From: a virus
Taxonomy: Duplodnaviria > Heunggongvirae > Uroviricota > Caudoviricetes
Virus record (IMG/VR): IMGVR_UViG_3300010356_003454
Coordinates: 72,820-136,819 of that record
Direction: 5' to 3' (one strand)
DNA length: 64,000 nt
Shown here piece by piece: positions 23,449 through 57,074 of this stretch. Position numbers and translations under genes: made by a program. The first letter of the stretch is position 1. Every line of letters starts with the position of its first letter. The notes under the pieces were generated by a model. That model saw nothing but the letters and a program-made list of their open reading frames with translations. It was not told where the DNA came from and did no database searches.

Positions 23449-23966
23449 GAGCTAAAACTGTAAATTTCCAGAGGGGATTAGATCCGAAGGAGGCCTTGGA
23501 AATAGGTAATGAAAATCTAAGGCAATTCCATAAAGATATGGATAATGGAAATTTTTTGGCTCCTCTTCATATTTTGATGGATGGGCTGGAAAGAGGATAT
23601 ATCTCGGATAAAGAAGCTGATGAGTTTATAATTGGAGCAGTCAGAACTAGTGCTCCCAGATATTGGGAATGGACTAAATGGTTTGAGGATACAAGAAATA
23701 TCTATTGGTCTGAATTTAATGAGTCTCTAAATATTAATTTTACGCTTCCCGATTTTAAGAGGATTAAAACATGGATAGGTAAAATAACAGAACATGATGG
23801 AGGTTATTGGTTTAAGATGAGAACTTCTTCCACTGATAAAAATGGAAATGGATATGGCATAGAGACGGAAAATGTTTTTTCGGATGATGATTATGCTTTT
23901 ACATCTAAATTTATCTTGAATCAAATTAATAGAGTATTTACAGAAACAGTTAGAAATATAGATTAA
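23445..23966 (+). CDS. MRAK/FERG-leader family protein
   Basis: Leader MRAKTVNFQRGLDPKEALEIGN. Confidence 0.55.
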   Translation: MRAKTVNFQRGLDPKEALEIGNENLRQFHKDMDNGNFLAPLHILMDGLERGYISDKEADEFIIGAVRTSAPRYWEWTKWFEDTRNIYWSEFNESLNINFTLPDFKRIKTWIGKITEHDGGYWFKMRTSSTDKNGNGYGIETENVFSDDDYAFTSKFILNQINRVFTETVRNID

Positions 23967-25183
23967 TGACTTTACCTAAACAATTAAATGATATTCTTGA
24001 TTTTCTTAGAGGACAAGACTGGATTCAGTCTCTGAATTCTATAGGGGATACTTATATGGTCGGAGGCTGTGTGAGGGATGCTTTCCGTGGCCAGAAGATT
24101 AAGGATATAGACCTTATTGTTGAAGGAACTACAATGGATCAGATCTTAGACGAATTGAGGCCTTATGGTAGAGTCGATCAGGTGGGCGAATCTTTTGCTG
24201 TAATTAAGTTTAGGCCTAAAGGTCATATTGGAGAAGATTATGATATTGCAGTTCCTAGAGTTGATAGAAAAATAGGATCTGGCCATAAGGGATTTGTTGT
24301 AGAGACTAAAGGAGTTAATCTTGTGGATGATTTGGAGAGAAGGGACTTTACCATAAATGCTATTGCCGTTAAAGTGGATAATGGAAGATTGGTAGATCCT
24401 TATTCTGGATTGGCGGATCTGAAAGCTGGAGTTCTTCGTGCGGTAGATGATATAGCATTTATTGAGGATCCTCTTAGAATTCTTAGAGGTATACAATTTG
24501 CGGCTCGCTTCGGATATAGGATCACGAATGGAACTATGAAATTAATGAGGGAAAATGCTCATTTAATTAAAGAGATTTCAGGAGAGAGAATATTTGAGGA
24601 ACTTATGAAGGTTCTGGATAAAGGAGGAGATACTCAGCTTGCTCTAGATCTTCTTCATCAGACTGATGTGGATGTAGCTCTATTTGATAAGAAGATGCTT
24701 AAATATGATCAGGGCTTTGAACATCTAGATCCCGCCTCTTTCTTCTATGTCTTGGGGCTCTTGGGAGATGTTAATCCTGCCGATTTCCTTAAAAAGAGGC
24801 TTAGGGGCGATAATAGACTTGAGAAGAATGTAAGAGTTCTCGATCGTATTTTTGAGATGCTTCCTCGAATGGTAGAGGACGAGGATCTAAAATACATGCT
24901 CTCTAAGGCCTTTACCGCTGCTCCTGAAGTTATGGATGCTGTAATTCTTCCTGATGAAGTCGATGAAATCGTTCTCCAGATGAGGACAATGAAAATTCCG
25001 ATGAACGAAGGAGATATAAAAATCGGAGGGGAGGATATTAAGAGAATAGGCCAGCTAAAAGAAGGACCTGAAATAGGATTCATCAAGGAGAAAATATTGA
25101 GGGATGCTCTAATGAATAGGTTTAATTGGAAAGACCGGGATAAGAGTTTAGAATATTTGCAGAATCTACTATATTCGAAATGA
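23966..25183 (+). CDS. cca: tRNA nucleotidyltransferase (CCA-adding enzyme) / poly(A) polymerase head-domain protein
   Basis: GGCVRDAFRGQKIKDIDLIVEG is the Pol-beta-like NTase head motif of CCA enzymes. Length 405 aa. Confidence 0.7.
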   Translation: MTLPKQLNDILDFLRGQDWIQSLNSIGDTYMVGGCVRDAFRGQKIKDIDLIVEGTTMDQILDELRPYGRVDQVGESFAVIKFRPKGHIGEDYDIAVPRVDRKIGSGHKGFVVETKGVNLVDDLERRDFTINAIAVKVDNGRLVDPYSGLADLKAGVLRAVDDIAFIEDPLRILRGIQFAARFGYRITNGTMKLMRENAHLIKEISGERIFEELMKVLDKGGDTQLALDLLHQTDVDVALFDKKMLKYDQGFEHLDPASFFYVLGLLGDVNPADFLKKRLRGDNRLEKNVRVLDRIFEMLPRMVEDEDLKYMLSKAFTAAPEVMDAVILPDEVDEIVLQMRTMKIPMNEGDIKIGGEDIKRIGQLKEGPEIGFIKEKILRDALMNRFNWKDRDKSLEYLQNLLYSK

Positions 25184-25614
25184 AATCTCTAATTCATAAT
25201 CTGGATAGGAAAAAGGTATTATTGATCCTTGAATGGTGTAAGAAGAACTTTGGGAGATCAAGATATCATCGAAAGTATCCAACATTGAGGGTCTATAAAT
25301 CTAAGGGAAATTCAGCCTTTGCTTATAGAGATGGAGGACTATTTGGAACTTATGATCACGGAGTAATTACAATTTATCTAGGCTCTCATGATAGTATGCG
25401 GGAACTATGTAAAACAGTAATACATGAATACAGGCATTATCTGATGAGCATTCGGGAATATAATTCTCTCTATAAAAAAATGGAAAGAGAAGGTTCTGAT
25501 CCTGAAGAGATATCTTATGAGCACCCTCATGAAAAAGATTGCGAGGATTTCGAGGATAAGTGGGGTGAATTATGTTTTAGTCAATTGAGAAAGAAACTCT
25601 ATAAAAAAGACTGA
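25180..25614 (+). CDS. HExxH metallohydrolase-like protein
   Basis: VIHEYRHYL motif. Resembles the C-terminal half of the 22897 protein. Confidence 0.35.
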   Translation: MKSLIHNLDRKKVLLILEWCKKNFGRSRYHRKYPTLRVYKSKGNSAFAYRDGGLFGTYDHGVITIYLGSHDSMRELCKTVIHEYRHYLMSIREYNSLYKKMEREGSDPEEISYEHPHEKDCEDFEDKWGELCFSQLRKKLYKKD

Positions 25615-25615
25615 T

Positions 25616-26134
25616 ATGAAAAGAATCCTTTTCTTTTTATTACTTATATTTATACCCTTAATAGCTCCAACTGGGTATTTAGAAATGACAGAGGAGAGGC
25701 TATTTGAAGCTGAAAAGATGGCATATTATATCTCTATTAGAGACCTTCCGTTTTCTCCGGATCTACTTGTTAAAGTTATAGAATATGAGAAGATTCTATA
25801 TCCAGATGTTGTTATTCTTCAGTCTCAACTTGAAACCGGATTTTATACTTCCGATATATTTAACAACGGAAAGAATCTCTTTGGCATGAAATTTCCTAAA
25901 TATAGGCCTACAGTTGCAATAGGAACTTATTCCGGGCATGCTCAATATGATCATTGGATAGAATCAGTCAGAGATTATAAGATATGGCAGGACTGGTATA
26001 TTACTAAAGGTTGGAGAATTTCAGTTAAAGAGGATAATTCTTTTTACATGGTCTTTCTTGATTGCATAAAATATGCGGAAGATCCCCACTATATCCCTAA
26101 ATTGATAAATCTCGCTTCTAGAGATAGGACGTAA
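25616..26134 (+). CDS. glucosaminidase-domain peptidoglycan hydrolase (endolysin candidate) with N-terminal signal anchor
   Basis: LQSQLETGFYTS...NNGKNLFGMK matches the ESGWG...NNLFGIK signature of mannosyl-glycoprotein endo-beta-N-acetylglucosaminidase. Hydrophobic N-terminus. Confidence 0.5.
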   Translation: MKRILFFLLLIFIPLIAPTGYLEMTEERLFEAEKMAYYISIRDLPFSPDLLVKVIEYEKILYPDVVILQSQLETGFYTSDIFNNGKNLFGMKFPKYRPTVAIGTYSGHAQYDHWIESVRDYKIWQDWYITKGWRISVKEDNSFYMVFLDCIKYAEDPHYIPKLINLASRDRT

Positions 26135-26153
26135 ATCTTAACGATTTTTTAAC

Positions 26154-26193
26154 AAAATTATTTTTTTATCTCGGAAATTATTCTTACATTAGC
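26154..26193 (+). promoter_or_regulatory. conserved intergenic module copy
   Basis: AAAATTATTTTTTTATCTCGGAAATTATTCTTACATTAGCC, preceded by CTTAACGATTTTTTAAC. Confidence 0.35.
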
Positions 26194-26212
26194 CTCTATA
26201 AAAGAATAGAGT

Positions 26213-26491
26213 ATGCTTGACATAGAAGCTTTTGATAAAATTCCAGCCGGATCCACTTTTGCAACAGGAGTTCTTCCTAATTCTCCAACAGGCATTTTTA
26301 TGACTAGGGACGGAGGAGATCTTCGTTGGGTAGCTGTAAAGGGATATGCTCATGATTGGGCAGTCTATTGTCATTGGGCTTATCACTCAGAAGACTTTGT
26401 AGCTTCTAGCGGAGATAAGGTACTTACTCCTGAATATGTTAAGAGGTGTGTTCCTTGCACAGAAGAAGTAATGGAAAGATATAGAATATGA
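26213..26491 (+). CDS. hypothetical protein
   Basis: ORF downstream of a module copy. Confidence 0.3.
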   Translation: MLDIEAFDKIPAGSTFATGVLPNSPTGIFMTRDGGDLRWVAVKGYAHDWAVYCHWAYHSEDFVASSGDKVLTPEYVKRCVPCTEEVMERYRI

Positions 26492-26778
26492 AAGTATATA
26501 GGATCCTTCATAAACCAACAGGTCTTTTTTTCACGCCTTCAAGGGGGTATGGGAATCTTTCTCGAACAGGAAAGCTCTATCCTAAAAAGCCCAGATTAGA
26601 ATGGGCTGGTGATTGTGTTCGAATCGAATTACGGATCTGGAGCAATAAAAAGCCTAACAAGCATCAACAGAAGATCATTGATTATTTTGGTCTTCAACCT
26701 GATAAGGATGGAGGATATTGGTTGGATAGGTATTTTCATAATCAGAAAGATAATTGGGAAATAATTGAAATAGAATAA
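26488..26778 (+). CDS. hypothetical protein
   Basis: ORF. 4-nt overlap with the upstream gene. Confidence 0.3.
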   Translation: MKVYRILHKPTGLFFTPSRGYGNLSRTGKLYPKKPRLEWAGDCVRIELRIWSNKKPNKHQQKIIDYFGLQPDKDGGYWLDRYFHNQKDNWEIIEIE

Positions 26779-26965
26779 ATTTATGAAAATATTTTTAAAT
26801 AGGTTAGCAGCTTTTTTTGTTTTACTTATTTTTGGCTATTTACTATTATCTTTATTTAACTGGAATATTGATTATTTTAACTGGAATGGGATATCTCAGT
26901 TTATATTTTGTTGCACGCTAGCTTTTTTATTATTATTTAGACCAGAATTTTCAAAAAAATAAATT

Positions 26966-27307
26966 ATGTCAGACATTACAAGAAGATTAGCAACAATTGA
27001 GAGGATATCAGCTATTAATCCTATACCGGATGCTGATGCAATTGAAAGGGCAACCATTCGAGGATGGAACGTAGTGGTTAAGAAGGGCGATCATAAAGTA
27101 GGAGATTTGGTTGTCTACTGCGAGATAGATTCTCTTATGCCCGAAAGGCCGGAATTCGAATTCCTTCGCCCGCGTGGGTTTAGAATAAAGACAATCAAAC
27201 TCAGAGGAACTTATAGTCAAGGTATAATTTTTTCATTAAATATTCTAAATTCGTCGGGAAATTTAATTGAAAAGGATGGAAAATTTTATCTGGAAATAGA
27301 TATATAA
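26966..27307 (+). CDS. hypothetical protein
   Basis: ORF. Confidence 0.3.
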   Translation: MSDITRRLATIERISAINPIPDADAIERATIRGWNVVVKKGDHKVGDLVVYCEIDSLMPERPEFEFLRPRGFRIKTIKLRGTYSQGIIFSLNILNSSGNLIEKDGKFYLEIDI

Positions 27308-27324
27308 ATTAAAACTATATATTT

Positions 27325-28164
27325 ATGGAGATAGGTTATATTTATGCGATAATTAATAAAAGGAATGGTAAATTTTATTTTGGCAAAACCTTTGATATTC
27401 AAAAAAGGTGGAAAAAACATGTTTTTAATGCTACTAAAAAAATAAATCGAAAACTTTATGATTCTATGAATTCATATGGTTATGATTATTTTTCTATTCA
27501 TCAAATTGGAATATACAAAGCAGAAAATAAAAATGAATTAACTAAGATACTAAATGAAAGGGAAAGATACTTTATAAATTTTTCTGATTCTGTTTTACTT
27601 GGCTATAATATGGCTCCTGGCGGGGATGGCGGATATTTAGGGGAGGAAGCTATACAAAAGATATCAAATAAAAAGAAGGGAATAAATTTAACAGAGGAAC
27701 ATAAAAAACATATTTCAGAAGGGAATAAAGGGATTTCAAAAATAGTATCGGAAAAAACAAAGAACAGGATTAGAAAAACTTGTAAAGAAAAAGGAATAAA
27801 ACCGCCGGCACAATATTGGGGAAGACCCGGATATAATGAACATCCGATGCTAAATAAGCATCATACAGAAGAAGCCAGAAATCTGATGAGTCAATATAGA
27901 TCCGGGAAATCCTATGAAGAAATTTACGGAAAAGAAAAAGCAAAGAAATTGAGGTTGGAAAAATCAAAAAGATGGATGGGAAATAAAATAAACTTTAAGG
28001 AAGTAGATTTAGAATTAGCAGAAAATCTTCTTCAGAAAGGAAAAAATTATAAAGAAGTCGCAAAATTTTTAGGAATTAGTTTAACAACATTTAATTATAA
28101 ATTTCGAGAAAAACATAACATAACACCGTATCAATATAGTTTAAATTTAAAAATAATGTCATGA
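27325..28164 (+). CDS. GIY-YIG homing endonuclease
   Basis: MEIGYIYAIINKRNGKFYFGKT (canonical GIY-YIG). NUMOD3-like LTEEHKKHIS. C-terminal HTH-like region. Confidence 0.75.
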   Translation: MEIGYIYAIINKRNGKFYFGKTFDIQKRWKKHVFNATKKINRKLYDSMNSYGYDYFSIHQIGIYKAENKNELTKILNERERYFINFSDSVLLGYNMAPGGDGGYLGEEAIQKISNKKKGINLTEEHKKHISEGNKGISKIVSEKTKNRIRKTCKEKGIKPPAQYWGRPGYNEHPMLNKHHTEEARNLMSQYRSGKSYEEIYGKEKAKKLRLEKSKRWMGNKINFKEVDLELAENLLQKGKNYKEVAKFLGISLTTFNYKFREKHNITPYQYSLNLKIMS

Positions 28165-28706
28165 AAAAATTATCCGCTATTTTTGTTTTTTTATTGTTTG
28201 CTTTTCTGAGCTTTGGCCAAATTCCATTATCTATTAACAATATAGATGAATTCAATGGATCTGTTAATAAAGTCACCAGAAGCTCATACTCTGTATTTAA
28301 AAGTGAAAATTCCATCGGAAATATAAGTTTATCTATGGGAAGGGTAGATAGCACATATTTTCTAATATTAAGAGTATCTACAGATCTTGGATGCCTATCT
28401 CAATATGACGGAAAATGTATGATAAAATTTTCGGATGGAACTATACTTAATTTTGCCCAGGGATCGGAAACAGATTGTTCGGAGTCCCCTGCAGCTCAAT
28501 ACTATTTAGTTGCTCGAGAAGAAATGAATCTGGAAAATGTTTTTCAAATAATGAAAATAAACCGAGAAAAAATAGAGTCTTCTTCTATTGATAAAATTCG
28601 GGTTTATGGATCAAAATATTATGCAGATTATATTCCAAATCCAAAATTTAGAGAGGATTTTAATGCAAAAGATGTTCTTATTTTTCACATTAAATCTTTA
28701 AAATAA
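28161..28706 (+). CDS. secreted hypothetical protein
   Basis: N-terminal signal peptide. Confidence 0.35.
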   Translation: MKKLSAIFVFLLFAFLSFGQIPLSINNIDEFNGSVNKVTRSSYSVFKSENSIGNISLSMGRVDSTYFLILRVSTDLGCLSQYDGKCMIKFSDGTILNFAQGSETDCSESPAAQYYLVAREEMNLENVFQIMKINREKIESSSIDKIRVYGSKYYADYIPNPKFREDFNAKDVLIFHIKSLK

Positions 28707-29464
28707 TGAAACAATTGATAGAGCTTTCTGAAGGAACGGACGTAACCGGACTTCTTGGGATTACTAAATGGGAGCCTCAGATTCCTGCTTGCCTTGCCGG
28801 TCTTGCTAAGGGAGCCTTTCCTTCTCATTCCATCAAGACGGATGAGGAAAGGGTTCAGAACCTTGTGGACATATATGAGGAATACCGTACCAGATACACC
28901 TGGATTGCTACGGAAAAACTTGATGGATCGTCCACGACTTATTCTATTGTCAATGACGAATTTGGAGTTTCTTCTCGCAATCTGGAACTTAAAGAGACCG
29001 AGGATAATACCTTCTGGAAGGTTGCAAGAGCTCTTGATGTTGAGGAAAAAATGAGGAAGTATATGACTGATCACGGTCTTAATGCTTTGACTCTTCAGGG
29101 TGAACTTCTTGGAGAAGGGATTCAGAAGAATAAGTATCATCTTAAAGGCCATACAGTGAGATTCTTCAGGGTCTTCGATCCTACCGCTTATTCTTTCTTC
29201 CCATATCATCAGGCTATAAAGGCTATTGCAGAAATGGGACTTGATTTTGTTCCTGTTATTGAGACTGATATGACTCTTCCCGACACAGTTGAAGAGATTA
29301 TTCGCTATGCAGATGGAAGATCAGCTCTTTATGAAACTGCAAGGGAAGGAGTGGTATTCGTTGCTGATCAGCTTATTGATAAGTCTGCGGATCTTAGCAG
29401 ATACCAAGGAAGGCTTTCATTTAAGGTTATTTCAAACAAATTCATACTAAAACACGAAGAATAA
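28706..29464 (+). CDS. ATP-dependent RNA ligase (Rnl/PF09414-like nucleotidyltransferase)
   Basis: KxDG adenylation motif in ATEKLDGSST. Length and motif spacing fit small RNA ligases. Confidence 0.6.
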   Translation: MKQLIELSEGTDVTGLLGITKWEPQIPACLAGLAKGAFPSHSIKTDEERVQNLVDIYEEYRTRYTWIATEKLDGSSTTYSIVNDEFGVSSRNLELKETEDNTFWKVARALDVEEKMRKYMTDHGLNALTLQGELLGEGIQKNKYHLKGHTVRFFRVFDPTAYSFFPYHQAIKAIAEMGLDFVPVIETDMTLPDTVEEIIRYADGRSALYETAREGVVFVADQLIDKSADLSRYQGRLSFKVISNKFILKHEE

Positions 29465-29916
29465 TGGACAAAAAAGTAGAAGAAGCAATTAATGAGTATC
29501 AGTGTCCTGGATGCTCTGTAGGCCCTTATCTAAAAAACGGGTGTACAGCATTCAAAAAGAGATCCTGGTCAGAATCATGCGATGCTCATAGTGCAGGAAC
29601 TTCTCTCGGCCTCTCTATTAAGATCTTTCTGGGAATGCCGAAGGGATTTAACCGAACTGGCGGAGGATTGGGTGATAAGCCCCGTCTGTCTTTGGATATC
29701 TTTAAATCTTTTGATGAGGTTTGGGATAAGGACGGAAAACCTTATGACGAATGGAATATCCCAGTCTGGAAGTATCTGAATGAGAATGGGCATACTCTTG
29801 TCAGAGGAATGTCCCCCAGAAACAATGCTCCCTTCCTTCATGTGATTCTCGAGAACTGCATGGATAGGATTGATTGCTTCGAAGTAACAAAGCAGATGGT
29901 TGAAGAAATGGACTAA
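29464..29916 (+). CDS. Cys-rich hypothetical protein
   Basis: ORF with CPGC...C...C N-terminus. Confidence 0.35.
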   Translation: MDKKVEEAINEYQCPGCSVGPYLKNGCTAFKKRSWSESCDAHSAGTSLGLSIKIFLGMPKGFNRTGGGLGDKPRLSLDIFKSFDEVWDKDGKPYDEWNIPVWKYLNENGHTLVRGMSPRNNAPFLHVILENCMDRIDCFEVTKQMVEEMD

Positions 29917-29931
29917 TTAATAAAACAAATT

Positions 29932-31059
29932 TTGATAATTCTAAATACTAAAACAATGAGTGAAAAAGCGAGTGTAAAACTCAGTACAAAGTCTTGGCAT
30001 TATAAACTGATAAAGTTTATTCTGGGATCGGCAGCACCTACGCCCTATAATATGAACAACCTCTGTCCGTATTTTTGGCTCTTGGTATTCAGCCTTTTGG
30101 TAGTTCCCTTTGTGGCTCCTATTAAAGGAATTGCGAAATTCTTAACCTGGTTTTTTAATGGATTTATTAATCTGTTAGAGAGCTCGATGATTTCTCCTAT
30201 CGCAGATAACTGGGAAAAGAGCTTAACTGATTTTGATGTCTATCAGATATGGACTTGGAATCAGGAAGTAAATAAATTTTTTAAATCTGTTCATAAGAAA
30301 GATGATCGTCCTATAGATCATTCAGATTTTGCCCGGGAATGGTGGACTAAGAAATATGGAGAGGATCCATTTAAGAACCAATACGAAGGAGGGTATACAG
30401 AAAAATTCCAAAAATGGCTTAATGAAATGAGGGAGAAGGATGCAGCGTTGAAAACTGCTGAGTATACAAAGGAGAAGGAAGAGCATGTTAAGAAACTTCA
30501 GAGGAAGGAGAAATTGGAGAAATTCGGTAAGGGCGTTGATAACATCTTCCAAAAAGTTGGTGATGAGTTTCGCTCATGGAAGAATCTTATCAAATGGACC
30601 AAGAGGGTGGTAGGCCTTATCATTACTCTTCTGGGACTGGTAGTTACTTTCTTTGTTGTTAACTTTATTGGTAAGGGAATTCTCCTTCTCATCATCAATT
30701 GGAGCTGGCCGGTATTCTTTGGTGTTTTAATAGTATTGGCAGTTATAGGATTAGGCGCTCTTTTTGTTCATTTCATTGGAATTCTTATAAAGTATATTGA
30801 GGCTAAAGGTCGAAAGGTATGGTGGATTAATATTCTTTATTATCTTTCCCTAGTGGTATTCTATCCCTTTAAATGGATCTTTTATAATTTCTTCTGGAAA
30901 ATCCTCTGTGTTGGCGGATGGTATCTTATAAAGAAAGGTGCTATTGGTCTCTGGGACGGCATCCTTGGATTCCTTGGAATCTTTGGTGAATATTTCGGAG
31001 CTTCCTATACAGATTATTGTCCTGGAATAGAATGGGATCAAGATGAACAAAAAAGATAG
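29932..31059 (+). CDS. multi-pass membrane protein
   Basis: Several predicted TM helices flank a charged central region. Confidence 0.4.
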   Translation: MIILNTKTMSEKASVKLSTKSWHYKLIKFILGSAAPTPYNMNNLCPYFWLLVFSLLVVPFVAPIKGIAKFLTWFFNGFINLLESSMISPIADNWEKSLTDFDVYQIWTWNQEVNKFFKSVHKKDDRPIDHSDFAREWWTKKYGEDPFKNQYEGGYTEKFQKWLNEMREKDAALKTAEYTKEKEEHVKKLQRKEKLEKFGKGVDNIFQKVGDEFRSWKNLIKWTKRVVGLIITLLGLVVTFFVVNFIGKGILLLIINWSWPVFFGVLIVLAVIGLGALFVHFIGILIKYIEAKGRKVWWINILYYLSLVVFYPFKWIFYNFFWKILCVGGWYLIKKGAIGLWDGILGFLGIFGEYFGASYTDYCPGIEWDQDEQKR

Positions 31060-35755: not shown

Positions 35756-35794
35756 AATATTTTTTTATCTCGGAAAGTTTGTTTATATTTAGAG
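35754..35794 (+). promoter_or_regulatory. conserved intergenic module copy
   Basis: AAAATATTTTTTTATCTCGGAAAGTTTGTTTATATTTAGAGG followed by GTAATTAAAAA and the ATG at 35813. Confidence 0.35.
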
Positions 35795-37093: not shown

Positions 37094-37095
37094 TT

Positions 37096-50441: not shown

Positions 50442-50480
50442 AAAATATTTTTTTATCTCGGAAAGATTCATTATATTAGC
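50442..50480 (+). promoter_or_regulatory. conserved intergenic module copy
   Basis: AAAATATTTTTTTATCTCGGAAAGATTCATTATATTAGC, 17 nt before the ATG at 50497. Confidence 0.35.
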
Positions 50481-50496
50481 ATATAAATTATCACCA

Positions 50497-50733
50497 ATGG
50501 CAGCTAAGATAGACTTAACCACAAAAAAGAGATTTCTGGAAATTCCAGAAAGAAAGAGATTTGGCTGGTCTCCCTATATGCAGGAAATTCTTAAAATCCA
50601 GTTTCCCCGTAATGCTGTTAAAGTAATGGCGCAGAAATCTGTTATTAGGGGAAAAAAATTATGCCTCTTTGGGAAGTTCATTTGGGATTATCAGATCGAA
50701 GTTGTTGATTACAAAGAATTTGTAAGGGAATAA
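50497..50733 (+). CDS. hypothetical protein
   Basis: ATG at 50497 downstream of the module. The tracked ORF begins earlier inside the module. Confidence 0.3.
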   Translation: MAAKIDLTTKKRFLEIPERKRFGWSPYMQEILKIQFPRNAVKVMAQKSVIRGKKLCLFGKFIWDYQIEVVDYKEFVRE

Positions 50734-50798
50734 TGGAAAAAAATCTTATCATAGTAAGGGGTTTGCCGGGCTCAGGATTTGGATATATAAAATAAAAA

Positions 50799-51617
50799 AT
50801 GCTTAAAAGAAATTGTCCATATTGTGATGCTGAAATTAAATATAGGAATGAAAAATCCTATAAATTTGCTATTAAGAATGAATCTGTTTGCAGGAGCTGC
50901 TCCGGGAAAATCAATACGTGGAATATTAGATTAAAGAACGGGGAAGCTAAAAATCCTTTTTTAGATAAAAACCACTCTAAAGAAGCTATTCAAAAAATGA
51001 GAGATTCACGGGCATCCAGGTCTGAAAAATATAAAACAGATGAATTTAGAAAAAATGTTTCTAAAGTAACTTCCGGAGAAAGAAATCCAATGTATGGAAA
51101 GAATTTAATGGATACTTGGATAGAAAAATATGGATTAGAAGAAGCATTAAAAAAGGAGAAAAGACGGAAACAAAAATTATCAAAAGCTTTTTCGGGGGAT
51201 AAAAATCCAATGTACGGTAGGGAAACCCCTAAAAAATCAGGTAAAGGAATTTCTGGCTGGTATGGAAGTTTTTATTTTAGAAGTTTGCATGAATTGAAAT
51301 TCATAATTTCCTGCGAACGATTCGGGTTAGAAATTTTATCTGCGGAGGACTTAAAAATACCATATAAAAATTATGATGGAACGGATAGAACATATTCTCC
51401 AGACTTTATTGTAGATAATAATTTTTTAGTTGAGGTCAAACCAAAAAAACTTTTCAAAACACCCTCTAATTTATTGAAATTTGATTCCGCAAAAAAATAC
51501 GCTTTAGAAAATAATTTAATCTTTAAAGTATTGGATTTTGGAATAATACTCAAAGATGAACTTAATAGATTGATAGAGTCGCAAGCAGTAAAATTAAATG
51601 TTGAATATGACTTATAA
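50799..51617 (+). CDS. putative homing-endonuclease-like nuclease (Zn finger + NUMOD3 repeats + C-terminal PD-(D/E)xK-like)
   Basis: CPYCD...CRSCSG Zn finger. Repeated NPMYGK/NPMYGR (NUMOD3). C-terminal SPDFIVDNNFLVEVK is PD...ExK-like. Confidence 0.4.
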   Translation: MLKRNCPYCDAEIKYRNEKSYKFAIKNESVCRSCSGKINTWNIRLKNGEAKNPFLDKNHSKEAIQKMRDSRASRSEKYKTDEFRKNVSKVTSGERNPMYGKNLMDTWIEKYGLEEALKKEKRRKQKLSKAFSGDKNPMYGRETPKKSGKGISGWYGSFYFRSLHELKFIISCERFGLEILSAEDLKIPYKNYDGTDRTYSPDFIVDNNFLVEVKPKKLFKTPSNLLKFDSAKKYALENNLIFKVLDFGIILKDELNRLIESQAVKLNVEYDL

Positions 51618-52032
51618 AAATGAAAATGGATCCCGCGAAAGATCTTTGATCATCGTTCGCGGGATCCCGTAACTGGGTTCGGGAAAAAGTACCTTTGCTA
51701 AGCTATTAGGTCGTGCAGTCTGTACCGCAGATGATTTTCATACTGATCGAGACGGAAATTATAACTGGAAGCCTGAAAATGTTGGCAGAGCTCATGAGTG
51801 GTGTAAGCGTAAGTGCAAGAGATTTATGAAGGCCGGAATTGAGACCATAATTATAGCTAACACTTCAACGACTGAGGATGAAATACGTCCATATATAATG
51901 ATAGCTAAAAATCATGGATATAGAGTGTTTTCGATTGTTGTTGAGAATAGACACGGGGGAGTAAATGAACACAATGTTCCTGAGGCCACTCTGGAAAAAA
52001 TGAAGAATAGATTTTCAATAAAACTGATATAA
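51607..52032 (+). pseudogene. polynucleotide-kinase-like P-loop kinase (AAA_33/Pnk-type) interrupted by in-frame TAA within the Walker A motif
   Basis: The reading frame gives ...SLIIVRGIP-TAA-LGSGKSTFAKLLGRAV...DDFHTDRDG...; the canonical form is hhhhRGxPGSGKST. The interruption behaves as a 6-nt insertion (TAACTG). The only ATG-initiated piece in the track (51826-52032) is the C-terminal third. Confidence 0.45.
51628..51667 (+). repeat. perfect 12-bp GC-rich inverted repeat (GGATCCCGCGAA / TTCGCGGGATCC) with 16-nt loop
   Basis: Arms at 51628-51639 and 51656-51667. The loop contains a TTG that could serve as a start codon (51646). An in-frame TAA follows 3 nt after the right arm. Confidence 0.7.
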
Positions 52033-52045
52033 AAATAATCTAAAA

Positions 52046-52261
52046 TTGATGGAAATGAAAAATAACACTTTTGTTCAGGAGAATGGAATGGTAATTGAAG
52101 AAGGGAAAAGATACAGATCTCTTGTTAGAGACCTTGTTTGGGTGAAGGAGATAAATCTTGAAAAGAACGAAATGCATTGTTACAATATTTCAGAATCCTG
52201 CAATTCCTGGCATAGGATATCTTCAGCTATTAAAGATAATAAATTCCGCAGTCAGGTATAA
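52046..52261 (+). CDS. hypothetical protein
   Basis: ORF. Confidence 0.3.
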   Translation: MMEMKNNTFVQENGMVIEEGKRYRSLVRDLVWVKEINLEKNEMHCYNISESCNSWHRISSAIKDNKFRSQV

Positions 52262-52263
52262 AA

Positions 52264-52803
52264 ATGAGTACAAAGATTTATAATGCATATTTATGGGATG
52301 GCACAGTTGAAGAACTGATGTCATTCCTTAAAGAGCTTCGAAAAAAGTATGCAGAAGAGGCAACTCTTCATCTTGTTCAATTTTCTGGATGGCTTAAGCA
52401 TAAGGAGGAGGAATATAAATCTGAAGGAAAATACTTCAGCCTTTCGATATATCTCAGGAGTTGCATAAATGCAGGACTTAATGAACCGGATAATCTTGAT
52501 GCTTCGGCTGCAGTGTATTTTCATCGCGGAAAAATTGCTCTTCAATTTTTTGGTTTTGAACTATTCTCTAGAGATGGTAAAAGACCTATGATGGAGCTGC
52601 TTCGTAGCGAGCCCAAACTCATCGAGTATGATTTCTGGAATAATGTTGATCAGCCGGAAGAACTAACAGAGGAACAATGGGACGATAGAAAAGACTTCTG
52701 GGATTTTCTTCAAGTTCCCTGCGAGGACGGTCTCATTTACGAATTCTCCTCACGAAATACACTATGGGAAATTATAAGCAACTATAGAGAAAAAACTCGG
52801 TAA
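52264..52803 (+). CDS. hypothetical protein
   Basis: ORF. Confidence 0.35.
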   Translation: MSTKIYNAYLWDGTVEELMSFLKELRKKYAEEATLHLVQFSGWLKHKEEEYKSEGKYFSLSIYLRSCINAGLNEPDNLDASAAVYFHRGKIALQFFGFELFSRDGKRPMMELLRSEPKLIEYDFWNNVDQPEELTEEQWDDRKDFWDFLQVPCEDGLIYEFSSRNTLWEIISNYREKTR

Positions 52804-52857
52804 GCATCATTGTAATTGCGAAAGATTTATTATATTTGAACATTAATATATGAAGCT

Positions 52858-53049
52858 ATGGTAAAGTTCTTAGTAAATATTCTCTCCTGGGTGCTTCTGC
52901 TTGCCGCCCTTGTATTTTTCATAGGTATCTTCTACTTCGTGATCGAGAAAGATTCCGATAATGCTTTTATTTGCGTCCTTTTAGGATGGACCAGCTACTT
53001 TTTAGGCTGGGGAGCTAGAAATTATTATCTCTTACTTAAAAACAAGTAA
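52858..53049 (+). CDS. small two-TM membrane protein (holin-like topology)
   Basis: 63 aa. Two TM helices. Charged C-terminus. Confidence 0.3.
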   Translation: MVKFLVNILSWVLLLAALVFFIGIFYFVIEKDSDNAFICVLLGWTSYFLGWGARNYYLLLKNK

Positions 53050-53050
53050 T

Positions 53051-53308
53051 ATGAATAACGATCTTAAAAAACTTTCTGACCACGAGATCAAGATACGAAA
53101 AGATGATCTCATCAGGGCTGAATCCGGTATCAAAATTCTTCTTGCCGAAAAAAGGGCTGTTTATAACAAGAAGATACAGAAGAGGTGGACGAATCCTGTT
53201 AAAATACTGGATCTCAAGAGGGAAATGGATGATCTGGAAAAGGCACTCTACTTGCTTAATGAATATTCCCGGACATTGACCGATGAAAGTAATTCCAGGA
53301 TGAAATAA
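53051..53308 (+). CDS. hypothetical coiled-coil protein
   Basis: ORF. Confidence 0.3.
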   Translation: MNNDLKKLSDHEIKIRKDDLIRAESGIKILLAEKRAVYNKKIQKRWTNPVKILDLKREMDDLEKALYLLNEYSRTLTDESNSRMK

Positions 53309-53357
53309 TCACAAAACTCTTAACAATATTTTAACTATAAATTCTAAATAGAAAGAA

Positions 53358-53987
53358 ATGTCAGACGAACAAACTCCCATCCAGAAGCTCTACTCAGATC
53401 CCAAAGCTAAAGGATTCGTTAATCACTTAATTGGAGCTTATCTCCCTATCCATAAAATCGAAAAGGTCTGGAACTTTAAATCCACTCAAAAACATCGCTG
53501 TAATGTCTGCGGCCAGAAGCTCTTCGATATTCAGACCGTTTGGGATAACATGCACAAAAATGATGAGAAGCTCCGGGCAGAATTCATGCCTCATCTTCAA
53601 AAACAGCTGGCAGGGGAAGAGACCAAACTCGAAGAGCATCCCATGTATAAGTATGTTACCCAGGGAGCGGTCCAGGCCTGGACTGGTAAGAAAACTGATA
53701 CCTGTCTCTGCAACAAATGTATTTCAGATCTTCTTGATATGGTCCAGACTGGCCTTTTAATGGATGATAAAAATATTGTTTGGCTTATCAACAAAATGAG
53801 AAGATCGGAAGTATTTGATGTATTCAAGGCCAGCGAAAAACTAACACCCACCGATAAAGAAGAGGTGGAACGAATAGAGAAAAAAGTCGAGAGATCGCCA
53901 GATAAGAAAGTTGCTACGTTTGGCGACCTTGAAGTCTTACAGCAACTTAAAGCAAAAATGGAGGCTGAAGAAAATGGCAAAGAATAA
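53358..53987 (+). CDS. Cys-rich (Zn-binding-like) hypothetical protein
   Basis: CNVCGQK and CLCNKC pairs. Confidence 0.4.
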   Translation: MSDEQTPIQKLYSDPKAKGFVNHLIGAYLPIHKIEKVWNFKSTQKHRCNVCGQKLFDIQTVWDNMHKNDEKLRAEFMPHLQKQLAGEETKLEEHPMYKYVTQGAVQAWTGKKTDTCLCNKCISDLLDMVQTGLLMDDKNIVWLINKMRRSEVFDVFKASEKLTPTDKEEVERIEKKVERSPDKKVATFGDLEVLQQLKAKMEAEENGKE

Positions 53988-54204
53988 AGAAGAAATTAGG
54001 GTTGTCAGAAAGATCCGAAGGATTGAATTCTGGTATAAGGACGAATTCTATGTCTATGAATTCCGAAGTGAGAACAACACCGGGTACTCTTTCATCTGGA
54101 AGAATGGGGCAAGGATATATGGACCTATGATAAATCACTCTACAGAGGAGGGGATTGAGGTCTATAATGCGATCCAGCCTAAAATCGTAAATAAGGAAAT
54201 TTGA
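53974..54204 (+). CDS. hypothetical protein
   Basis: ATG at 53974 overlaps the upstream gene end. Confidence 0.3.
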   Translation: MAKNKEEIRVVRKIRRIEFWYKDEFYVYEFRSENNTGYSFIWKNGARIYGPMINHSTEEGIEVYNAIQPKIVNKEI

Positions 54205-54293
54205 TTTTTAACAAACTTTTAACGCTTAAAATTTTTTTAAAATTTAACTTTTTCTTATATTAAGGTGTAATAAATATAGAGAAATTACCTAAC

Positions 54294-55004
54294 ATGAAAA
54301 TAATACTTAATACTCAGAGCTCAGAATTACTTAATTATTTTATAAGGGCTTCGAAGAATTCTGCATCAGGACCAGAGAGTAAAAGAGCAGAAATCCAAGG
54401 ATCTAGAGTCGAATCCGGCCTTTTTGATCATATAGGAGTTCCTTCCGTTGATGCATATCTTATAGAAGTTCCGACATCTTATTCTAAAAGGGCCGTTGAC
54501 TTTATCAAAAAGAAAACTCCTTATGTTCCCGTAATTCTGTTTGGCTCGCCTGAATCCCTGATTGAGGTTTCCGGTGCAGATATTTACATTCCACTTTGCA
54601 ATTATTCAGAAGAATTCTTTGCAAGTTTCTACCAGTTAGCTATTTGGAATGCTTCGAATTATATTCGTAATTTCGAAAAGCTTCGTAAATTAACCACGAA
54701 GATGAGTGATGTTATCGAATTCAATAATTGTAAGTATGATCCTACCCGCAGGACTCTATTCTATAAAGGGAGCGAGTTAAAGAGGCTATCGGCTAAAGAG
54801 GGCGGAATTATAGAAGTTCTTGCTTCTAATTTTGGGGAGGTGGTTAAGAAAGAAATCATCTTGGAGAAGGTATGGCATAAATCAGACTATTTCTCCGGTC
54901 GCTCAATGGATGTCTATGTCACGCATCTAAGGACCTTATTTAAGGAGAACGATGTTGATGTTAATATAAAGAATATCTCCGGTGTTGGACTAATACTTGA
55001 ATAA
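54294..55004 (+). CDS. OmpR/PhoB-type winged-helix transcriptional regulator-like protein
   Basis: The C-terminal LKRLSAKEGGIIEVLASNFGEVVKKEIILEKVWHKSDYFSGRSMDVYVTHLRTLFKE matches the trans_reg_C winged-helix pattern. The N-terminal region is not clearly a receiver domain. Confidence 0.5.
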   Translation: MKIILNTQSSELLNYFIRASKNSASGPESKRAEIQGSRVESGLFDHIGVPSVDAYLIEVPTSYSKRAVDFIKKKTPYVPVILFGSPESLIEVSGADIYIPLCNYSEEFFASFYQLAIWNASNYIRNFEKLRKLTTKMSDVIEFNNCKYDPTRRTLFYKGSELKRLSAKEGGIIEVLASNFGEVVKKEIILEKVWHKSDYFSGRSMDVYVTHLRTLFKENDVDVNIKNISGVGLILE

Positions 55005-55257
55005 TATGAGTGTTTTTCGAAAATTTCAGAATACCCGAATCGATCTGGAAAAAGTTATGGTCTATAGGCCATATACAAATTCCGTCAGAAGAGAAGATGC
55101 ATGGGATAAAATAATTTTCTATACTTCTCGATATCCCGAATGTTTTGAGGTCTATTATAATAGTGTTGAGGAAAGGGAGATTCTTTTGAAGGACCTTAAA
55201 TTTTTAGATGATTACTTTGCGATAAAATCTCCGGAGGAAGAGCGAATATTGCCATAA
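54997..55257 (+). CDS. hypothetical protein
   Basis: ORF. Confidence 0.3.
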   Translation: MNNMSVFRKFQNTRIDLEKVMVYRPYTNSVRREDAWDKIIFYTSRYPECFEVYYNSVEEREILLKDLKFLDDYFAIKSPEEERILP

Positions 55258-55359
55258 ATCTAACGTTTTTTAACGTTTCATAAGTCATTTAGATCCTCAA
55301 ATATTTTTTTATTTGGGGATTTTTTCTTACATTTACTTAGTAATTAAAACTATAAGACA

Positions 55360-55962
55360 ATGAAACGCTTAATTATCCTCTGGACACTCTTACTTCTCCC
55401 GCTTTTTGCAGGTGCCCAGTTTTCGATAGATTCCGTAGGCTTTCAGGTTTATCGGGCTGATATCTATCAGGGGCAGGATACAGAAGAAGGCTTTTTCGCT
55501 AACAAGAGGAATTCTTACAATGTAGACGTTTTAGTCTATATTGAAGATGGCAAGATGACAAATAAGAATATGAGGGGTCAGCTTAAGTCTATGAGATTTC
55601 AAAAAGAGCCCAAGTATTTTTCTAACCTGGCTGAAGGAGTCCCTGGATATGAAATAGAGAGTAAAGACTTTGGAGGGTTCAATTGCGTTATCAGCATATT
55701 TTATCTTCAGGAGTCAAACTCATATAGGATTAGAATGGATTATTCAAATCTTCGAATCTTTTTATATGCTAATCCTACAAATGAAAGACCTTGGGATGAT
55801 CAAACAGATTTAATGCTGGTAAAAGATGCTCAGTCCTGGCCTAATGATCCTGATTATACGGATGAAGAAGTTATAGAGTATTTTAAAAAGCTGATGAACG
55901 GAGACGAGGTTTCAAAGGCTATTGCTAAAGCTCTTATTTTTGATGCAGTAAACGAATTTTAA
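55360..55962 (+). CDS. secreted hypothetical protein
   Basis: Signal peptide MKRLIILWTLLLLPLFAGAQ. Confidence 0.35.
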   Translation: MKRLIILWTLLLLPLFAGAQFSIDSVGFQVYRADIYQGQDTEEGFFANKRNSYNVDVLVYIEDGKMTNKNMRGQLKSMRFQKEPKYFSNLAEGVPGYEIESKDFGGFNCVISIFYLQESNSYRIRMDYSNLRIFLYANPTNERPWDDQTDLMLVKDAQSWPNDPDYTDEEVIEYFKKLMNGDEVSKAIAKALIFDAVNEF

Positions 55963-55970
55963 AAAAGAAT

Positions 55971-57074
55971 ATGAATTACACACTTGATTTTATCAGAAAG
56001 AATAATCTCATTATTTTTGAAGCAATAATGGGATCGCATGCATACGGAACCAATATTGAGACTTCGGATAAGGATATCCGAGGGGTCTTCATTCAGCCTC
56101 TTGAAGACATTCTTAAGTATGGATATAAGGATCAGGTTGCTGATAAGACCAACGATATTGTCTTTTATGAACTGAAGAGATTTCTCGGACTGGTTAAGAC
56201 TAATAATCCTAACATCCTTGAGCTCCTTAATGCTCCTGCAGATTGTATTATCTATAAGAATTCTCTTTATGATCTTATCGCTCAGAATGCTCGTCATTTT
56301 GTTACGAAGAAGTGCCGCTGGACTTTCGCTGGTTATGCTATCGAGCAGATTAGGAAGGCAAGGGGATACAACAAGATGATGAACTGGGAAGAATCTAAGA
56401 TGACCCGAAAGGGTGTTCTGGATTTCTGCTACATTATTGAAGGGGGAGAGACCATACTCCTTGAGGAATGGATCAGAAGAACCGGTAGAAATACAGAAGG
56501 ATCCCTCTTCAGCGATCAGAGAATGCTTGCTCTTGCAAAGATCGATCACGCTCATGACATTTATGCAGTTTATGATCTTAGTAATTTCAAGGGTCTTTAT
56601 GGAGTTGTTGGAAAGGAGAATGCAAATGATGTTCAGCTTACCTCTATCCCTAAGGGACAAAAGGTCGTTGCTATCCTTACTTTCAATAAGGACGCATACT
56701 CAACTCATTGCAAGAATTATCTGGCTTACCAGACTTGGCTGAAGGAGAGGAATGAGGATCGTTTCAAGATGAACAAGGCTCATGGTAAGAACTATGACTC
56801 GAAGAATATGATGCATACCTTCCGTCTTCTTAACATGGCTCTTGAGATTGCAGCTACCGGAGAGATAAGAGTTCGTAGATCAGATGAAGAAAGAGAAAAG
56901 CTTCTTAAGATCCGTCATGGCGAATACGATTATGATCTTCTTATCGAAGAAGCAGAAGATATGATCAAGGATCTTGATCGTGCATTCGATCAGTCTTCTC
57001 TTCCTGATAAAATTCACGATAGCTTTATCGCTAATCTTGAATATGAAATCAGAGAAAAAAGATATGGTCTTTAA
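55971..57074 (+). CDS. Pol-beta-superfamily nucleotidyltransferase (PF10127-like 'predicted NTase')
   Basis: MGSHAYGTNIETSDKDIRGVF matches the G[SG]...D.D NTase-fold signature. Confidence 0.5.
   Translation: MNYTLDFIRKNNLIIFEAIMGSHAYGTNIETSDKDIRGVFIQPLEDILKYGYKDQVADKTNDIVFYELKRFLGLVKTNNPNILELLNAPADCIIYKNSLYDLIAQNARHFVTKKCRWTFAGYAIEQIRKARGYNKMMNWEESKMTRKGVLDFCYIIEGGETILLEEWIRRTGRNTEGSLFSDQRMLALAKIDHAHDIYAVYDLSNFKGLYGVVGKENANDVQLTSIPKGQKVVAILTFNKDAYSTHCKNYLAYQTWLKERNEDRFKMNKAHGKNYDSKNMMHTFRLLNMALEIAATGEIRVRRSDEEREKLLKIRHGEYDYDLLIEEAEDMIKDLDRAFDQSSLPDKIHDSFIANLEYEIREKRYGL

Follow-up and report, generated by a model that had tools for sequence, protein, structure and literature searches.

The closest known relative of the element analysed here is the mobA/gene 60 cassette of phage T4, reportedly described by Bonocora in 2011. 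In this cassette, a homing endonuclease gene lies beside a non-coding insert within an essential conserved motif; a stop codon directly follows the take-off codon, and a single tRNA, tRNA-Gly, pairs with both the take-off and the landing codon. The insert, 50 nt in length, interrupts the MobA target, and the cassette has been called "unique" (Manning and Atkins 2022 preprint). Pairing of the 5' mRNA has been proposed as the forward driver (10.1101/2024.12.09.627546). We found a comparable element in 64,000 nucleotides of DNA from a virus of the Caudoviricetes (positions 72,820 to 136,819 of IMG/VR record IMGVR_UViG_3300010356_003454; hereafter the window), in which the gene for a predicted polynucleotide kinase (Pnk)-fold 5'-kinase is broken by a stop codon within its Walker A motif. 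An earlier note on the window had proposed a dispersed RNA-repair toolkit made up of an RNA ligase, a CCA-adding enzyme, this kinase, a nucleotidyltransferase and a HAD phosphatase. Our overall explanation, which we hold to be likely, is that the window carries a known repair gene set in two modules, both invaded by homing endonucleases, with a split ligase in one and a kinase decoded by a +6 stop-hop in the other.

The kinase element resembles mobA/gene 60 in its endonuclease neighbour, in the position of the insert within an essential motif, in a stop directly after the take-off codon, in take-off and landing codons that may pair with one tRNA, in 5' mRNA pairing as a possible forward driver, and in an insert that plausibly blocks self-cleavage. 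It differs in that the gap is 6 nt and not 50, and the tRNA would be tRNA-Pro and not tRNA-Gly. Gaps of the window type contain no internal stem-loop or Shine-Dalgarno sequence; a hairpin is present 5' of the site, unlike the take-off stem-loop of gene 60. The targets are the Walker A motifs of kinases and helicases, and the endonucleases are of the NUMOD3/TnsA-like or HNH_3 type. Because the open reading frame (ORF) that ends at the stop, ORF1, can be as short as 10–12 codons, a long nascent-peptide signal is unlikely, in contrast to gene 60.

Synthetic 'stop-hops', which Weiss et al. are said to have reported in 1987, likewise encode a single amino acid by nine nucleotides, in which a stop stands between matched codons, but these were low-efficiency construct artefacts. 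According to a 2016 recoding review, in-frame stop-hopping works in synthetic constructs, and "no occurrences are known" in nature. The 10-nt bypass in the terminase gene of phage phiHau3 (PMC10732093) also has a short gap and a proposed 5' stem-loop stimulator, whereas it involves a hungry UUA codon and shifts the frame. We found no prior description of a natural in-frame stop-hop in the literature, of which our coverage was incomplete, and earlier work may exist.

The kinase interruption is thus of interest for the study of genetic decoding. If our reading is correct, this would be the first in-frame stop-hop found in nature, and T4 mobA/gene 60 would gain a second class of endonuclease-linked bypass cassette beside it. 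The minimal bypass signal, of ~50 nt, would then comprise one hairpin followed by a Pro codon, a stop and a landing codon that is near-cognate. It would also offer a simple test of mRNA re-pairing at the ribosome exit as the driver of forward sliding, and a second one, of whether bypass elements arise in evolution as homing-endonuclease immunity devices. The 32 natural variants of the signal described below can be used for mutational and structural work.

A cassette at the Walker A codons of a predicted 5'-kinase gene

The earlier note had listed a Pnk-like kinase at 51607 as interrupted, and a P-loop frame of predicted Pnk fold with an in-frame TAA is indeed found there. When the 5' stub of the gene is joined to its downstream part, a 130-aa kinase results that is 95% identical over its full length to the uninterrupted metagenomic proteins P0001 and P0002, in a family of ~7000 members. 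Matches of the kinase sequence to solved structures were weak, with polynucleotide kinases prominent among them (best match, the Mucorales RNA 5'-OH kinase 9drz, E 2e-4). We then turned to an AlphaFold model of the 95%-identical P0001 (pLDDT 84). In a Foldseek search against the PDB, its first 23 matches were the kinase of C. thermocellum Pnkp (CthPnkp), T4 Pnk, Mucorales kinases and mammalian PNKP, with TM scores of ~0.7 and 4jt2, 2ia5, 1ly1 and 9drz at the top. The conserved Asp after beta-2 is present (D31 and D32 are invariant in 35 homologs), and Walker A is intact only if 6 nt are skipped. The model thus identifies the product as a predicted Pnk-fold P-loop 5'-kinase. The part of the gene downstream of the stop evolves with a dN/dS of 0.03.

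The gene is interrupted twice, by an 899-bp endonuclease insertion after the stub and by a 6-nt stop-containing insert in the P-loop. Uninterrupted alleles (L062–L067, 92–95% identity) align to the window up to 50776–50777 and resume at 51676, which defines the 899-bp insertion; it is bounded by the 9-bp GSG-coding repeats GGCTCAGGA and GGTTCGGGA. All parts lie on the + strand. The resident kinase stub (50735–50797; 15 codons) reads MEKNLIIVRGLPGSG, followed by out-of-family residues and a stop, and includes the left repeat (50769–50777). It is followed by the gene of a 272-aa homing endonuclease (50799–51617), in which Pfam recognises NUMOD3 and a TnsA-like (PD-(D/E)xK) nuclease domain. The new start at 51607 overlaps the last endonuclease codons and opens ORF1 of the hop-kinase (51607–51672), which encodes MTYKNENGSRERSLIIVRGIP and then terminates at TAA, providing the first half of Walker A together with a beta-1 strand that replaces the original one. 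Within ORF1, a perfect 12-bp hairpin (51628–51667) is formed by the arms GGAUCCCGCGAA (51628–51639) and UUCGCGGGAUCC (51656–51667), with a minimum free energy of -25 kcal/mol and a z-score of -4.8; the last base of its 3' arm is the first of the Pro codon CCG. The proposed stop-hop site (51667–51675) consists of CCG as take-off codon, TAA, and CTG as landing codon, nine nucleotides that would specify one proline. The rest of the Pnk-fold kinase (GSGKSTFAK...FSIKLI; 51676–52032) starts with the right repeat. Removal of TAACTG restores the canonical GIPGSGKS.

The replacement beta-1 strand and the stub use different codons (for Arg, CGC against AGG), which points to a foreign origin of the replacement 5' end. 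From its sequence anatomy, we interpret the interruption as a cassette, comprising the endonuclease, the replacement 5' end, the hairpin and TAA-CTG, that was inserted at the GSG codons of Walker A and left a dead stub upstream. An intein was rejected as an explanation on account of the stop codons and the separate ORFs.

Could the six nucleotides be removed or neutralised at the RNA or DNA level, as a processed intervening sequence, by editing, or in a hairpin-guided, intron-like event? A conserved hairpin sits directly 5' of the insert, the phage has genes for enzymes that process RNA ends and ligate RNA, and the location of the endonuclease resembles that of intron-encoded endonucleases; the neighbouring GIY-YIG endonuclease matches a 'group I intron endonuclease' family. 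On the other hand, Rfam returned no group I intron match, at the gathering threshold or at E<=1, in either the kinase region (50500–52100) or the ligase split described below (27200–28800), and none at gathering thresholds across the window. The non-ORF flanks of the kinase endonuclease (~20 and 60 nt) are too short for a ribozyme core, and a group I intron was rejected for both interruptions. Moreover, the order of Pro codon, stop and Pro-like codon is exactly what tRNA re-pairing predicts, and we know of no mechanism that excises 6 nt. We regard such removal as very improbable.

The hairpin region (51628–51667) also contains four GATC-core palindromes in 40 nt (GGATCC, AGATCT, TGATCA and GGATCC), which may be a coincidence or reflect a link to methylation or restriction. 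The 12-mer arm is not a dispersed repeat of the window, in which its only exact matches were the two arms themselves.

The same arrangement in unrelated phage P-loop genes

The first independent case was P0102, which belongs to a different lineage with 70% identity that is found in 15 contigs, has no endonuclease nearby, and was called as a 109-aa protein lacking a P-loop. Its upstream DNA reads MNFKNQKGALFNKSLILVRGLP-TAG-CTA-GSGKT and is preceded by a different perfect hairpin, GGAGCCCUCU/AGAGGGCUCC. We scanned IMG/VR and the JGI metagenomes for such patterns, all of which required a stop-like codon after Pro, and filtered the matches for open frames on both sides. This yielded 32 distinct genuine hop sequences, 13 from this kinase family and 19 from an unrelated UvrD-type helicase (KVFGPP-stop-x-GSGKT; Pfam UvrD-helicase, E 7e-23). 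They share one layout: a hairpin, a Pro codon, any of the stops, a YYN codon and then GSGK. The stop is UAA in 13, UGA in 13 and UAG in 6 cases, always at the same codon boundary. Scans for patterns spaced by 3 nt or 9 nt yielded no genuine case. In cellular genomes (one per species for 185,579 bacterial and archaeal species), five matches were obtained, all due to chance. The closest cultured relative of the hop helicase, DSL-LC04, carries the uninterrupted form MNVRKVFGPPGSGKT.

When the landing codon was left free in the scan, all 12 genuine combinations of take-off, stop and landing codon had CCN, CUN, UCA or UUA (Pro, Leu or Ser) at the landing position, while chance matches showed unrelated codons such as AAT, GTT, AGT and ACA. 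Of these landing codons, CCN is cognate to the tRNA of the take-off codon, and pairing with CUN, UCA or UUA depends on G.U pairs; in the window, the tRNA would move from CCG to CUG.

A local hairpin of 8–12 bp is found in 31 of the 32 sequences, with its 3' end within -2 to +1 nt of the Pro codon. Support for the hairpin comes from folding each sequence against its shuffles, with uninterrupted alleles as controls: mean folding energies of the hop alleles were -24/-25 kcal/mol (z -5.6 and -3.6), compared with -8.3 kcal/mol (z -0.2) for the uninterrupted kinase alleles. Stem sequences differ between lineages, their complementarity is kept, and some include G.U pairs, which indicates pairing at the RNA level. 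The exception, L151 (2096–2118), is a UvrD/Rep-like helicase reading NAGP-TAG-TTA-GSGKT with no adjacent hairpin; it is either a structure-less hop variant or a genuine pseudogene.

ORF1 spans 20–23 codons in 12 of the 13 kinases and only 10–12 codons in some helicases. A conserved AAGGAG-like, Shine-Dalgarno-like motif is present just 5' of the hairpin in 17 of the 19 helicase hop alleles, 38–51 nt upstream of the Pro codon (e.g., L111, L149, L157 and L108). In alleles of the L135/L141 type this motif is the ribosome-binding site for a start codon in the 5' arm of the hairpin. The motif may stimulate the hop or couple it to initiation.

These data bear on the plainest alternative, that of a pseudogene. 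The kinase would then have been destroyed by the endonuclease insertion, with the stop and hairpin as debris, and the phage would be left with no working 5'-kinase. An in-frame TAA within Walker A and a dead 5' stub fit this idea, as does the truncation of such genes by gene callers, exemplified by P0102. It does not explain why the same architecture occurs in 32 distinct sequences of two gene families with the stop at a constant codon boundary, or why the landing codon is confined to YYN. The hairpin is maintained despite lineage-specific arm sequences, ORF1 keeps the beta-1 residues in its protein while using different codons, dN/dS is low downstream of the stop, and one lineage was seen in 15 contigs. 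We therefore consider decay of the gene quite improbable. What might have passed for a simple pseudogene when the kinase was first noted as interrupted is the most unusual feature of the region. Since gene callers truncate hop genes, functional kinases and helicases of this type will have been missed or labelled as pseudogenes.

A proposed +6 stop-hop

The simplest account that gives a functional Walker A is a hop of +6. The ribosome would translate ORF1 to the Pro codon, CCG in the window, and stall with the stop codon in its A site. A Pro codon before a stop is a slow termination context, and a stop followed by C is a weak stop signal. At take-off, the 3' arm of the hairpin would lie in the mRNA channel and the 5' arm would already be outside the ribosome, so that re-pairing would favour forward movement; the 12-bp hairpin would re-form behind the ribosome at the mRNA exit and push the mRNA forward. 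The peptidyl-tRNA-Pro would re-pair 6 nt downstream on the YYN codon, its xGG anticodon pairing with the first two codon positions through G-C or G.U, and decoding would resume at GGN to give the canonical G-x-P-G-S-G-K-S/T. On this basis we lean towards the view that hairpin-Pro-stop-YYN is a natural programmed +6 stop-hop, carried by endonuclease-linked mobile cassettes that invade the Walker A motif of different phage P-loop genes, and that the six untranslated bases give immunity while the protein is kept intact.

Readthrough of the stop, by a phage or host suppressor tRNA or by a near-cognate tRNA, would instead insert two residues (X-Leu/Pro/Ser) into the P-loop or place expression under the control of a suppressor. 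Large phages often encode suppressor tRNAs and recode stops, and readthrough and hopping look alike at the sequence level. The use of all three stops, however, fits no single suppressor, and the other genes of the window terminate normally at TAA, TGA and TAG. Neither the window nor its flanks yielded a tRNA gene. The resulting GxPxxGSGK would break the GxxxxGK[ST] spacing, which the uninterrupted homologs that we examined retain, and the residue encoded after the stop varies among Pro, Leu and Ser, the common trait of these codons being their ability to pair with a Pro anticodon. Readthrough is thus unlikely in our estimate. An alternative genetic code was rejected as well, given that TAA, TGA and TAG all close ordinary ORFs of the window and all three occur at hop sites.

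Several points weigh against a stop-hop. The full-length product and its junction peptide are predictions from sequence. The landing codon often differs from the take-off codon, including in the window, and re-pairing then requires a G.U pair at the first or second codon position. In E. coli, synthetic stop-hops were of low efficiency, so the yield of the hop could be small. Owing to unequal loop lengths, RNAalifold recovered no more than part of the stem from 11 kinase leaders aligned without gaps. The hairpin could instead control initiation, as the start codon lies within its 5' arm in some helicases. Selection for a weak stop context, in which C or U comes after the stop, could by itself account for the Y at the first position of the landing codon.

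Homing endonucleases beside the proposed hop sites

An endonuclease gene lies 47–131 nt upstream of the hop in 15 of the 32 distinct alleles. In 8 of the 13 kinase alleles it is of the NUMOD3/TnsA-like type, at a distance of 53–131 nt; six of these are divergent, and those of the window and L197 are on the same strand. This architecture was seen beside the hop-kinases of L107, L124 and L128 and, by tblastn, of L168, L176, L197 and L208. A search for loci related to the window's own kinase endonuclease had returned none, and its homologs emerged only later, by tblastn, beside hop-kinases. In 7 of the 19 helicase alleles an HNH_3 endonuclease is located 47–62 nt upstream on the same strand. No endonuclease was found near any of the seven uninterrupted kinase loci searched. 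The insertion is also polymorphic, being present in the window and absent from its 92–95% identical relatives.

The 6-nt insert would interrupt the endonuclease target in P-loop DNA and so render its carrier immune. Hop lineages with no endonuclease mirror the "endonuclease lost, bypass retained" state of MobA elements (Manning and Atkins 2022 preprint).

A split Rnl5 ligase gene

A second homing endonuclease divides the RNA ligase gene of the window. The earlier note had placed an Rnl-type ligase at 28706; the PF09414 domain and its KLDG motif are present there, on an ORF that holds only the nucleotidyltransferase half of an enzyme of the Rnl5 type. This 252-aa ORF (28706–29464, + strand; PF09414 RNA_ligase, E 8.9e-21), with Lys71 in KLDG and an N-terminal tail, MKQLIELS, aligns to residues 109–338 of the Naegleria ligase NgrRnl (5cot, E 5.7e-36) and covers phrog_968 only from position 119 of 398, while intact phage homologs measure 354–360 aa. 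The missing N-terminal, OB-like domain is encoded by a separate 113-aa ORF upstream (26966–27307, +; TIGR02306 RNA_lig_DRB0094) that ends in a C-terminal tail (..EKDGKFYLEIDI). Between the two lie a GIY-YIG homing endonuclease (27325–28164, +; Pfam GIY-YIG; TIGR01453, 67 bits against a cutoff of 56) and a 181-aa cargo ORF with a signal-peptide- or lipoprotein-like N-terminus and no family match (28161–28706, +).

Against TIGR02306, the family of the D. radiodurans ligase, the N-terminal ORF matches positions 2–99 with 81.8 bits and the C-terminal ORF positions 107–341 with 94.6 bits; neither half alone reaches the cutoff of 151 bits, and their sum of 176 bits exceeds it. The two ORFs align end to end with intact ligases, the first being colinear with the N-termini of the phiM12 and S-CREM1 enzymes. 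No C-terminal OB or Rnl2-type domain is present, and, with the halves 1.4 kb apart, the two domains are not on one polypeptide. These profiles assign the predicted ligase to the Rnl5 (DraRnl/NgrRnl) nick-sealing family, whose members seal duplex nicks with an RNA 3'-OH strand (PMC4408790, PMC7261155). It shares with DraRnl and NgrRnl (5cot) the KxDG nucleotidyltransferase domain and the signature N-domain that replaces a C-terminal one, and differs in having these domains on separate ORFs with added tails.

The split is found in relatives. L068 has the same four ORFs, L069 has the N-terminal half, endonuclease and C-terminal half with no cargo ORF, and in the distant L089 a GIY-YIG endonuclease also lies between the halves. 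Compared with L068, the dN/dS is 0.10 for the N-terminal and 0.06 for the C-terminal half, at dS ~0.8–1.2. The added tails are conserved (..YLEIDI and stop; MK(Q/K)LI(E/N)LS), and the cargo ORF shows 78% identity and a dN/dS of 0.08. As judged from these comparisons, the split is old and maintained, with strong purifying selection on both halves in the relatives that share it. The two polypeptides presumably reassemble. In L082 (4029–6576) an Rnl5 ligase is interrupted elsewhere, by ~1.5 kb in the C-domain between ~50 and 49 residues, shortly upstream of KxDG.

Genes in pieces that have gained new C- and N-terminal tails, retained in evolution, are known from MobE/NrdA and MobA/Topo2L (Manning and Atkins 2022 preprint). 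As in the MobE-split NrdA of phage Aeh1 and the MobA-split Topo2L, an endonuclease within the ORF has produced two ORFs with kept tails; here it is an RNA ligase that is cut, at the interdomain linker, by a GIY-YIG enzyme, with a cargo ORF in the window and L068. With the split ligase, the few enzymes known to withstand division by a homing endonuclease come to include an RNA ligase, a new example of a known phenomenon.

The RNA-repair gene set

An identical combination of genes was already described for jumbo phages by Iyer et al. in 2021, namely an ATP-dependent RNA ligase, a polynucleotide kinase, a HAD phosphatase, RlaP and a CCA-adding enzyme, and was read as countering host RNases (PMC7824862). 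The toolkit of the window is therefore a known gene set, and as another phage carrying it the window adds little. The earlier suggestion that the set was assembled from parts different from those of T4 is therefore not new. The ligase is of the nick-sealing Rnl5 type and not an anticodon-loop ligase of the Rnl1 type. Compared with the jumbo-phage sets, the components are the same and likewise often dispersed. The window differs in its two-piece Rnl5 ligase and its recoding-dependent kinase, no 2H or cRec phosphoesterase was found, and the source record, at least 137 kb in length, may not come from a jumbo phage. The RNA-repair gene set of large phages is reportedly also treated by Burroughs and Aravind in 2016.

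Profile searches confirmed the family assignments of the earlier note: all of the ORFs it named exist and the four domain calls hold, with the qualification that the ligase ORF is half an enzyme and the kinase is interrupted twice. The class II tRNA nucleotidyltransferase of CCA-adding type (23966–25183, +) is an intact 405-aa protein with a PolyA_pol head (E 3.7e-23) and a PolyA_pol_RNAbd RNA-binding neck in Pfam. It matches the tRNA nucleotidyltransferase family phrog_2244 (E 5e-65), and the motifs GGCVRD, DID (DIDL), RRD (RRDF) and EDPLR are present. It falls below all equivalog cutoffs of the NCBIfam CCA families (best full-length match PRK13299, 138.9 bits against a cutoff of 290), so that "CCA-adding" is a family-level call and does not establish specificity.

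The nucleotidyltransferase at 55971, which had been likened to the PF10127 family, is an intact 367-aa RlaP-family protein of Pol-beta type (55971–57074, +; PF10127, 82.9 bits against a cutoff of 23; phrog_388 over its full length). It has the catalytic residues GS...DKD (G21-S22, D33-x-D35), and 58 related loci were found. The description of this family in association with RNA ligases, to which the earlier note had referred, is borne out by the literature: PF10127 was named RlaP for its location beside RNA ligases, T4 NrdC.11 is an RlaP, and two bacterial RlaPs add 1–2 nucleotides to RNA 3'-OH ends with a preference for mimics of cleaved tRNA (2025 preprint, PMC12776372). A NUDIX hydrolase lies directly 3' of RlaP (57146–57733, +; Pfam NUDIX, E 2e-11) and is kept near it in about ten related loci (L004–L014), mostly downstream, and upstream in L014 and L029. 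It could be an accessory, acting as an RNA 5'-end or nucleotide-cleaning partner of RlaP.

The HAD phosphatase at 3397, also correctly noted before, is a stand-alone protein (3397–3945, +) with all four motifs intact (DFDDT, T105, K148 and DD166/167), although it scores below the Pfam cutoff. It matches phrog_415 'polynucleotide kinase' (E 4e-13), and its database names are generic. The best PDB match of its model (pLDDT 89) was the 3'-phosphatase domain of T4 Pnkp (5uj0, E 4e-5), followed by Pnkp1, with AphA-type acid phosphatases interleaved with Pnkp among the matches and modest TM scores. On this moderate fold match and the PHROG label, it is a candidate 3'-phosphatase, weakly linked to RNA ends. 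A search for an end-healing partner, as the earlier note had suggested, thus gave this candidate and no phosphodiesterase: Pfam detected no 2',3'-cyclic phosphodiesterase, 2H/LigT, macro, RtcB or other end-healing partner among ~70 ORFs of the window. Nor were the phage's own tRNA genes, for which it had also proposed to look, found in the window, its 10-kb extensions or the loci of relatives.

The genes form two loose modules 22 kb apart, one running from the CCA enzyme to the ligase (23966–29464) and the other from the kinase to RlaP and NUDIX (50735–57733). In the window, the ligase is 1.8 kb downstream of the CCA enzyme and RlaP 4 kb downstream of the kinase. The first pairing recurs in five related loci (L068–L072), with the CCA gene 1.4–2 kb upstream of the ligase. 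For the second, the kinase, a winged-helix protein, RlaP, NUDIX and an AAA protein follow in the same order in most of L004, L006, L007, L010, L011, L025 and L029, the exceptions being L025, which has no NUDIX, and L029, with NUDIX upstream of RlaP. Links between the modules are seen in L015, L017, L020 and L030 (CCA enzyme 0.5–4 kb from RlaP) and in L074/L075 (kinase 3.4 kb from the ligase). The ligase and RlaP, 26 kb apart in the window, are separated by 4 kb in L090 and by 3.3 kb in phage phiM12. The hop-kinase of L107 has a metallophosphatase on one side and an Rnl1-type ligase on the other, and the kinase of L128 is followed by a metallophosphatase. These neighbourhoods support both modules and the link between them, as guilt by association and not as proof.

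In T4, the 5'-kinase and 3'-phosphatase of Pnkp heal RNA ends, and Rnl1 then seals them, against PrrC; T4 also has the RlaP NrdC.11. The window resembles T4 in its kinase fold (TM ~0.72 to T4 Pnk) and in the T4 Pnkp match of the HAD model. It differs in having the kinase and the phosphatase as two small proteins encoded 48 kb from each other, in its nick-sealing Rnl5, and in the addition of the CCA-adding and RlaP enzymes. The heal-and-seal role proposed earlier for the set is the accepted prediction for these families; the HAD phosphatase lies 20 kb from the CCA enzyme, among nucleotide-metabolism genes. We infer that these genes would act jointly in RNA repair, and they may have a counter-defence role against anticodon nucleases.

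Some observations sit uneasily with such a joint function. The repair genes, four or five in number, lie scattered across 54 kb and form no operon, the substrates of Rnl5 enzymes are duplex nicks and not anticodon loops (PMC4408790, PMC7261155), and neither tRNA genes, a cyclic phosphodiesterase nor evidence of an anticodon nuclease was found. The genes could thus be real and yet not constitute one RNA-repair system: Rnl5 would seal RNA-containing nicks in replication or recombination, the kinase and HAD phosphatase would serve nucleotide or DNA-end metabolism, and the CCA enzyme would serve only tRNA maturation or maintenance. Their scatter among replication and nucleotide-metabolism genes agrees with this, as does the setting of the HAD gene, which has a dUTPase among its neighbours and polymerase B and ribonucleotide reductase a few kb downstream. 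Against such separate roles, for each pair of repair genes there is some unrelated phage lineage in which the two are close neighbours, RlaP prefers cleaved-tRNA mimics (PMC12776372), the kinase fold specifically matches RNA/DNA 5'-OH kinases, and in L107 the same kinase family is flanked by a metallophosphatase and an Rnl1 ligase. We consider separate roles doubtful, though a serious possibility, and retain joint RNA repair as the preferred function.

Gene content of the window

The window has a G+C content of ~35%, with nearly all long ORFs on the + strand, and is part of a large, low-GC virulent phage. A megablast of positions 23000–30000 against GenBank phages gave no match, so no close GenBank phage was found at the DNA level; the nearest proteins come from uncultured huge phages and Tenacibaculum phage PTm1. 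Profile searches identified a family-B DNA polymerase (N-terminal half only), a ribonucleotide reductase, a GMP-reductase-like enzyme, a dUTPase, an NAD-dependent DNA ligase, a flap endonuclease, an AAA ATPase and a DNA methyltransferase.

Five homing-endonuclease genes, four GIY-YIG and one NUMOD3/TnsA-like, occur in the 64 kb (20730–21332, 27325–28164, 35000–35755, 50799–51617 and 58739–59539), two of them inside repair genes. The polymerase B ORF (6564–8006, 480 aa) encodes the exonuclease domain and only the start of the polymerase domain. As the next gene is that of the ribonucleotide reductase, the C-terminal half must be encoded elsewhere, and polymerase B is possibly another split gene; the same ORF, of 480 aa, is present in the relative L186.

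An OmpR/PhoB-type winged-helix protein (Trans_reg_C; 54294–55004) is encoded between the kinase and RlaP and is kept in relatives. Three stretches of 39–76 nt (19363–19401, 35748–35789 and 37095–37170) show 80–92% identity to DNA 5' of the kinase on L065–L067 and look like a dispersed regulatory or promoter-like repeat. The phage also encodes an ankyrin-repeat protein (47948–48571) and an SPFH/flotillin protein (61835–63433).

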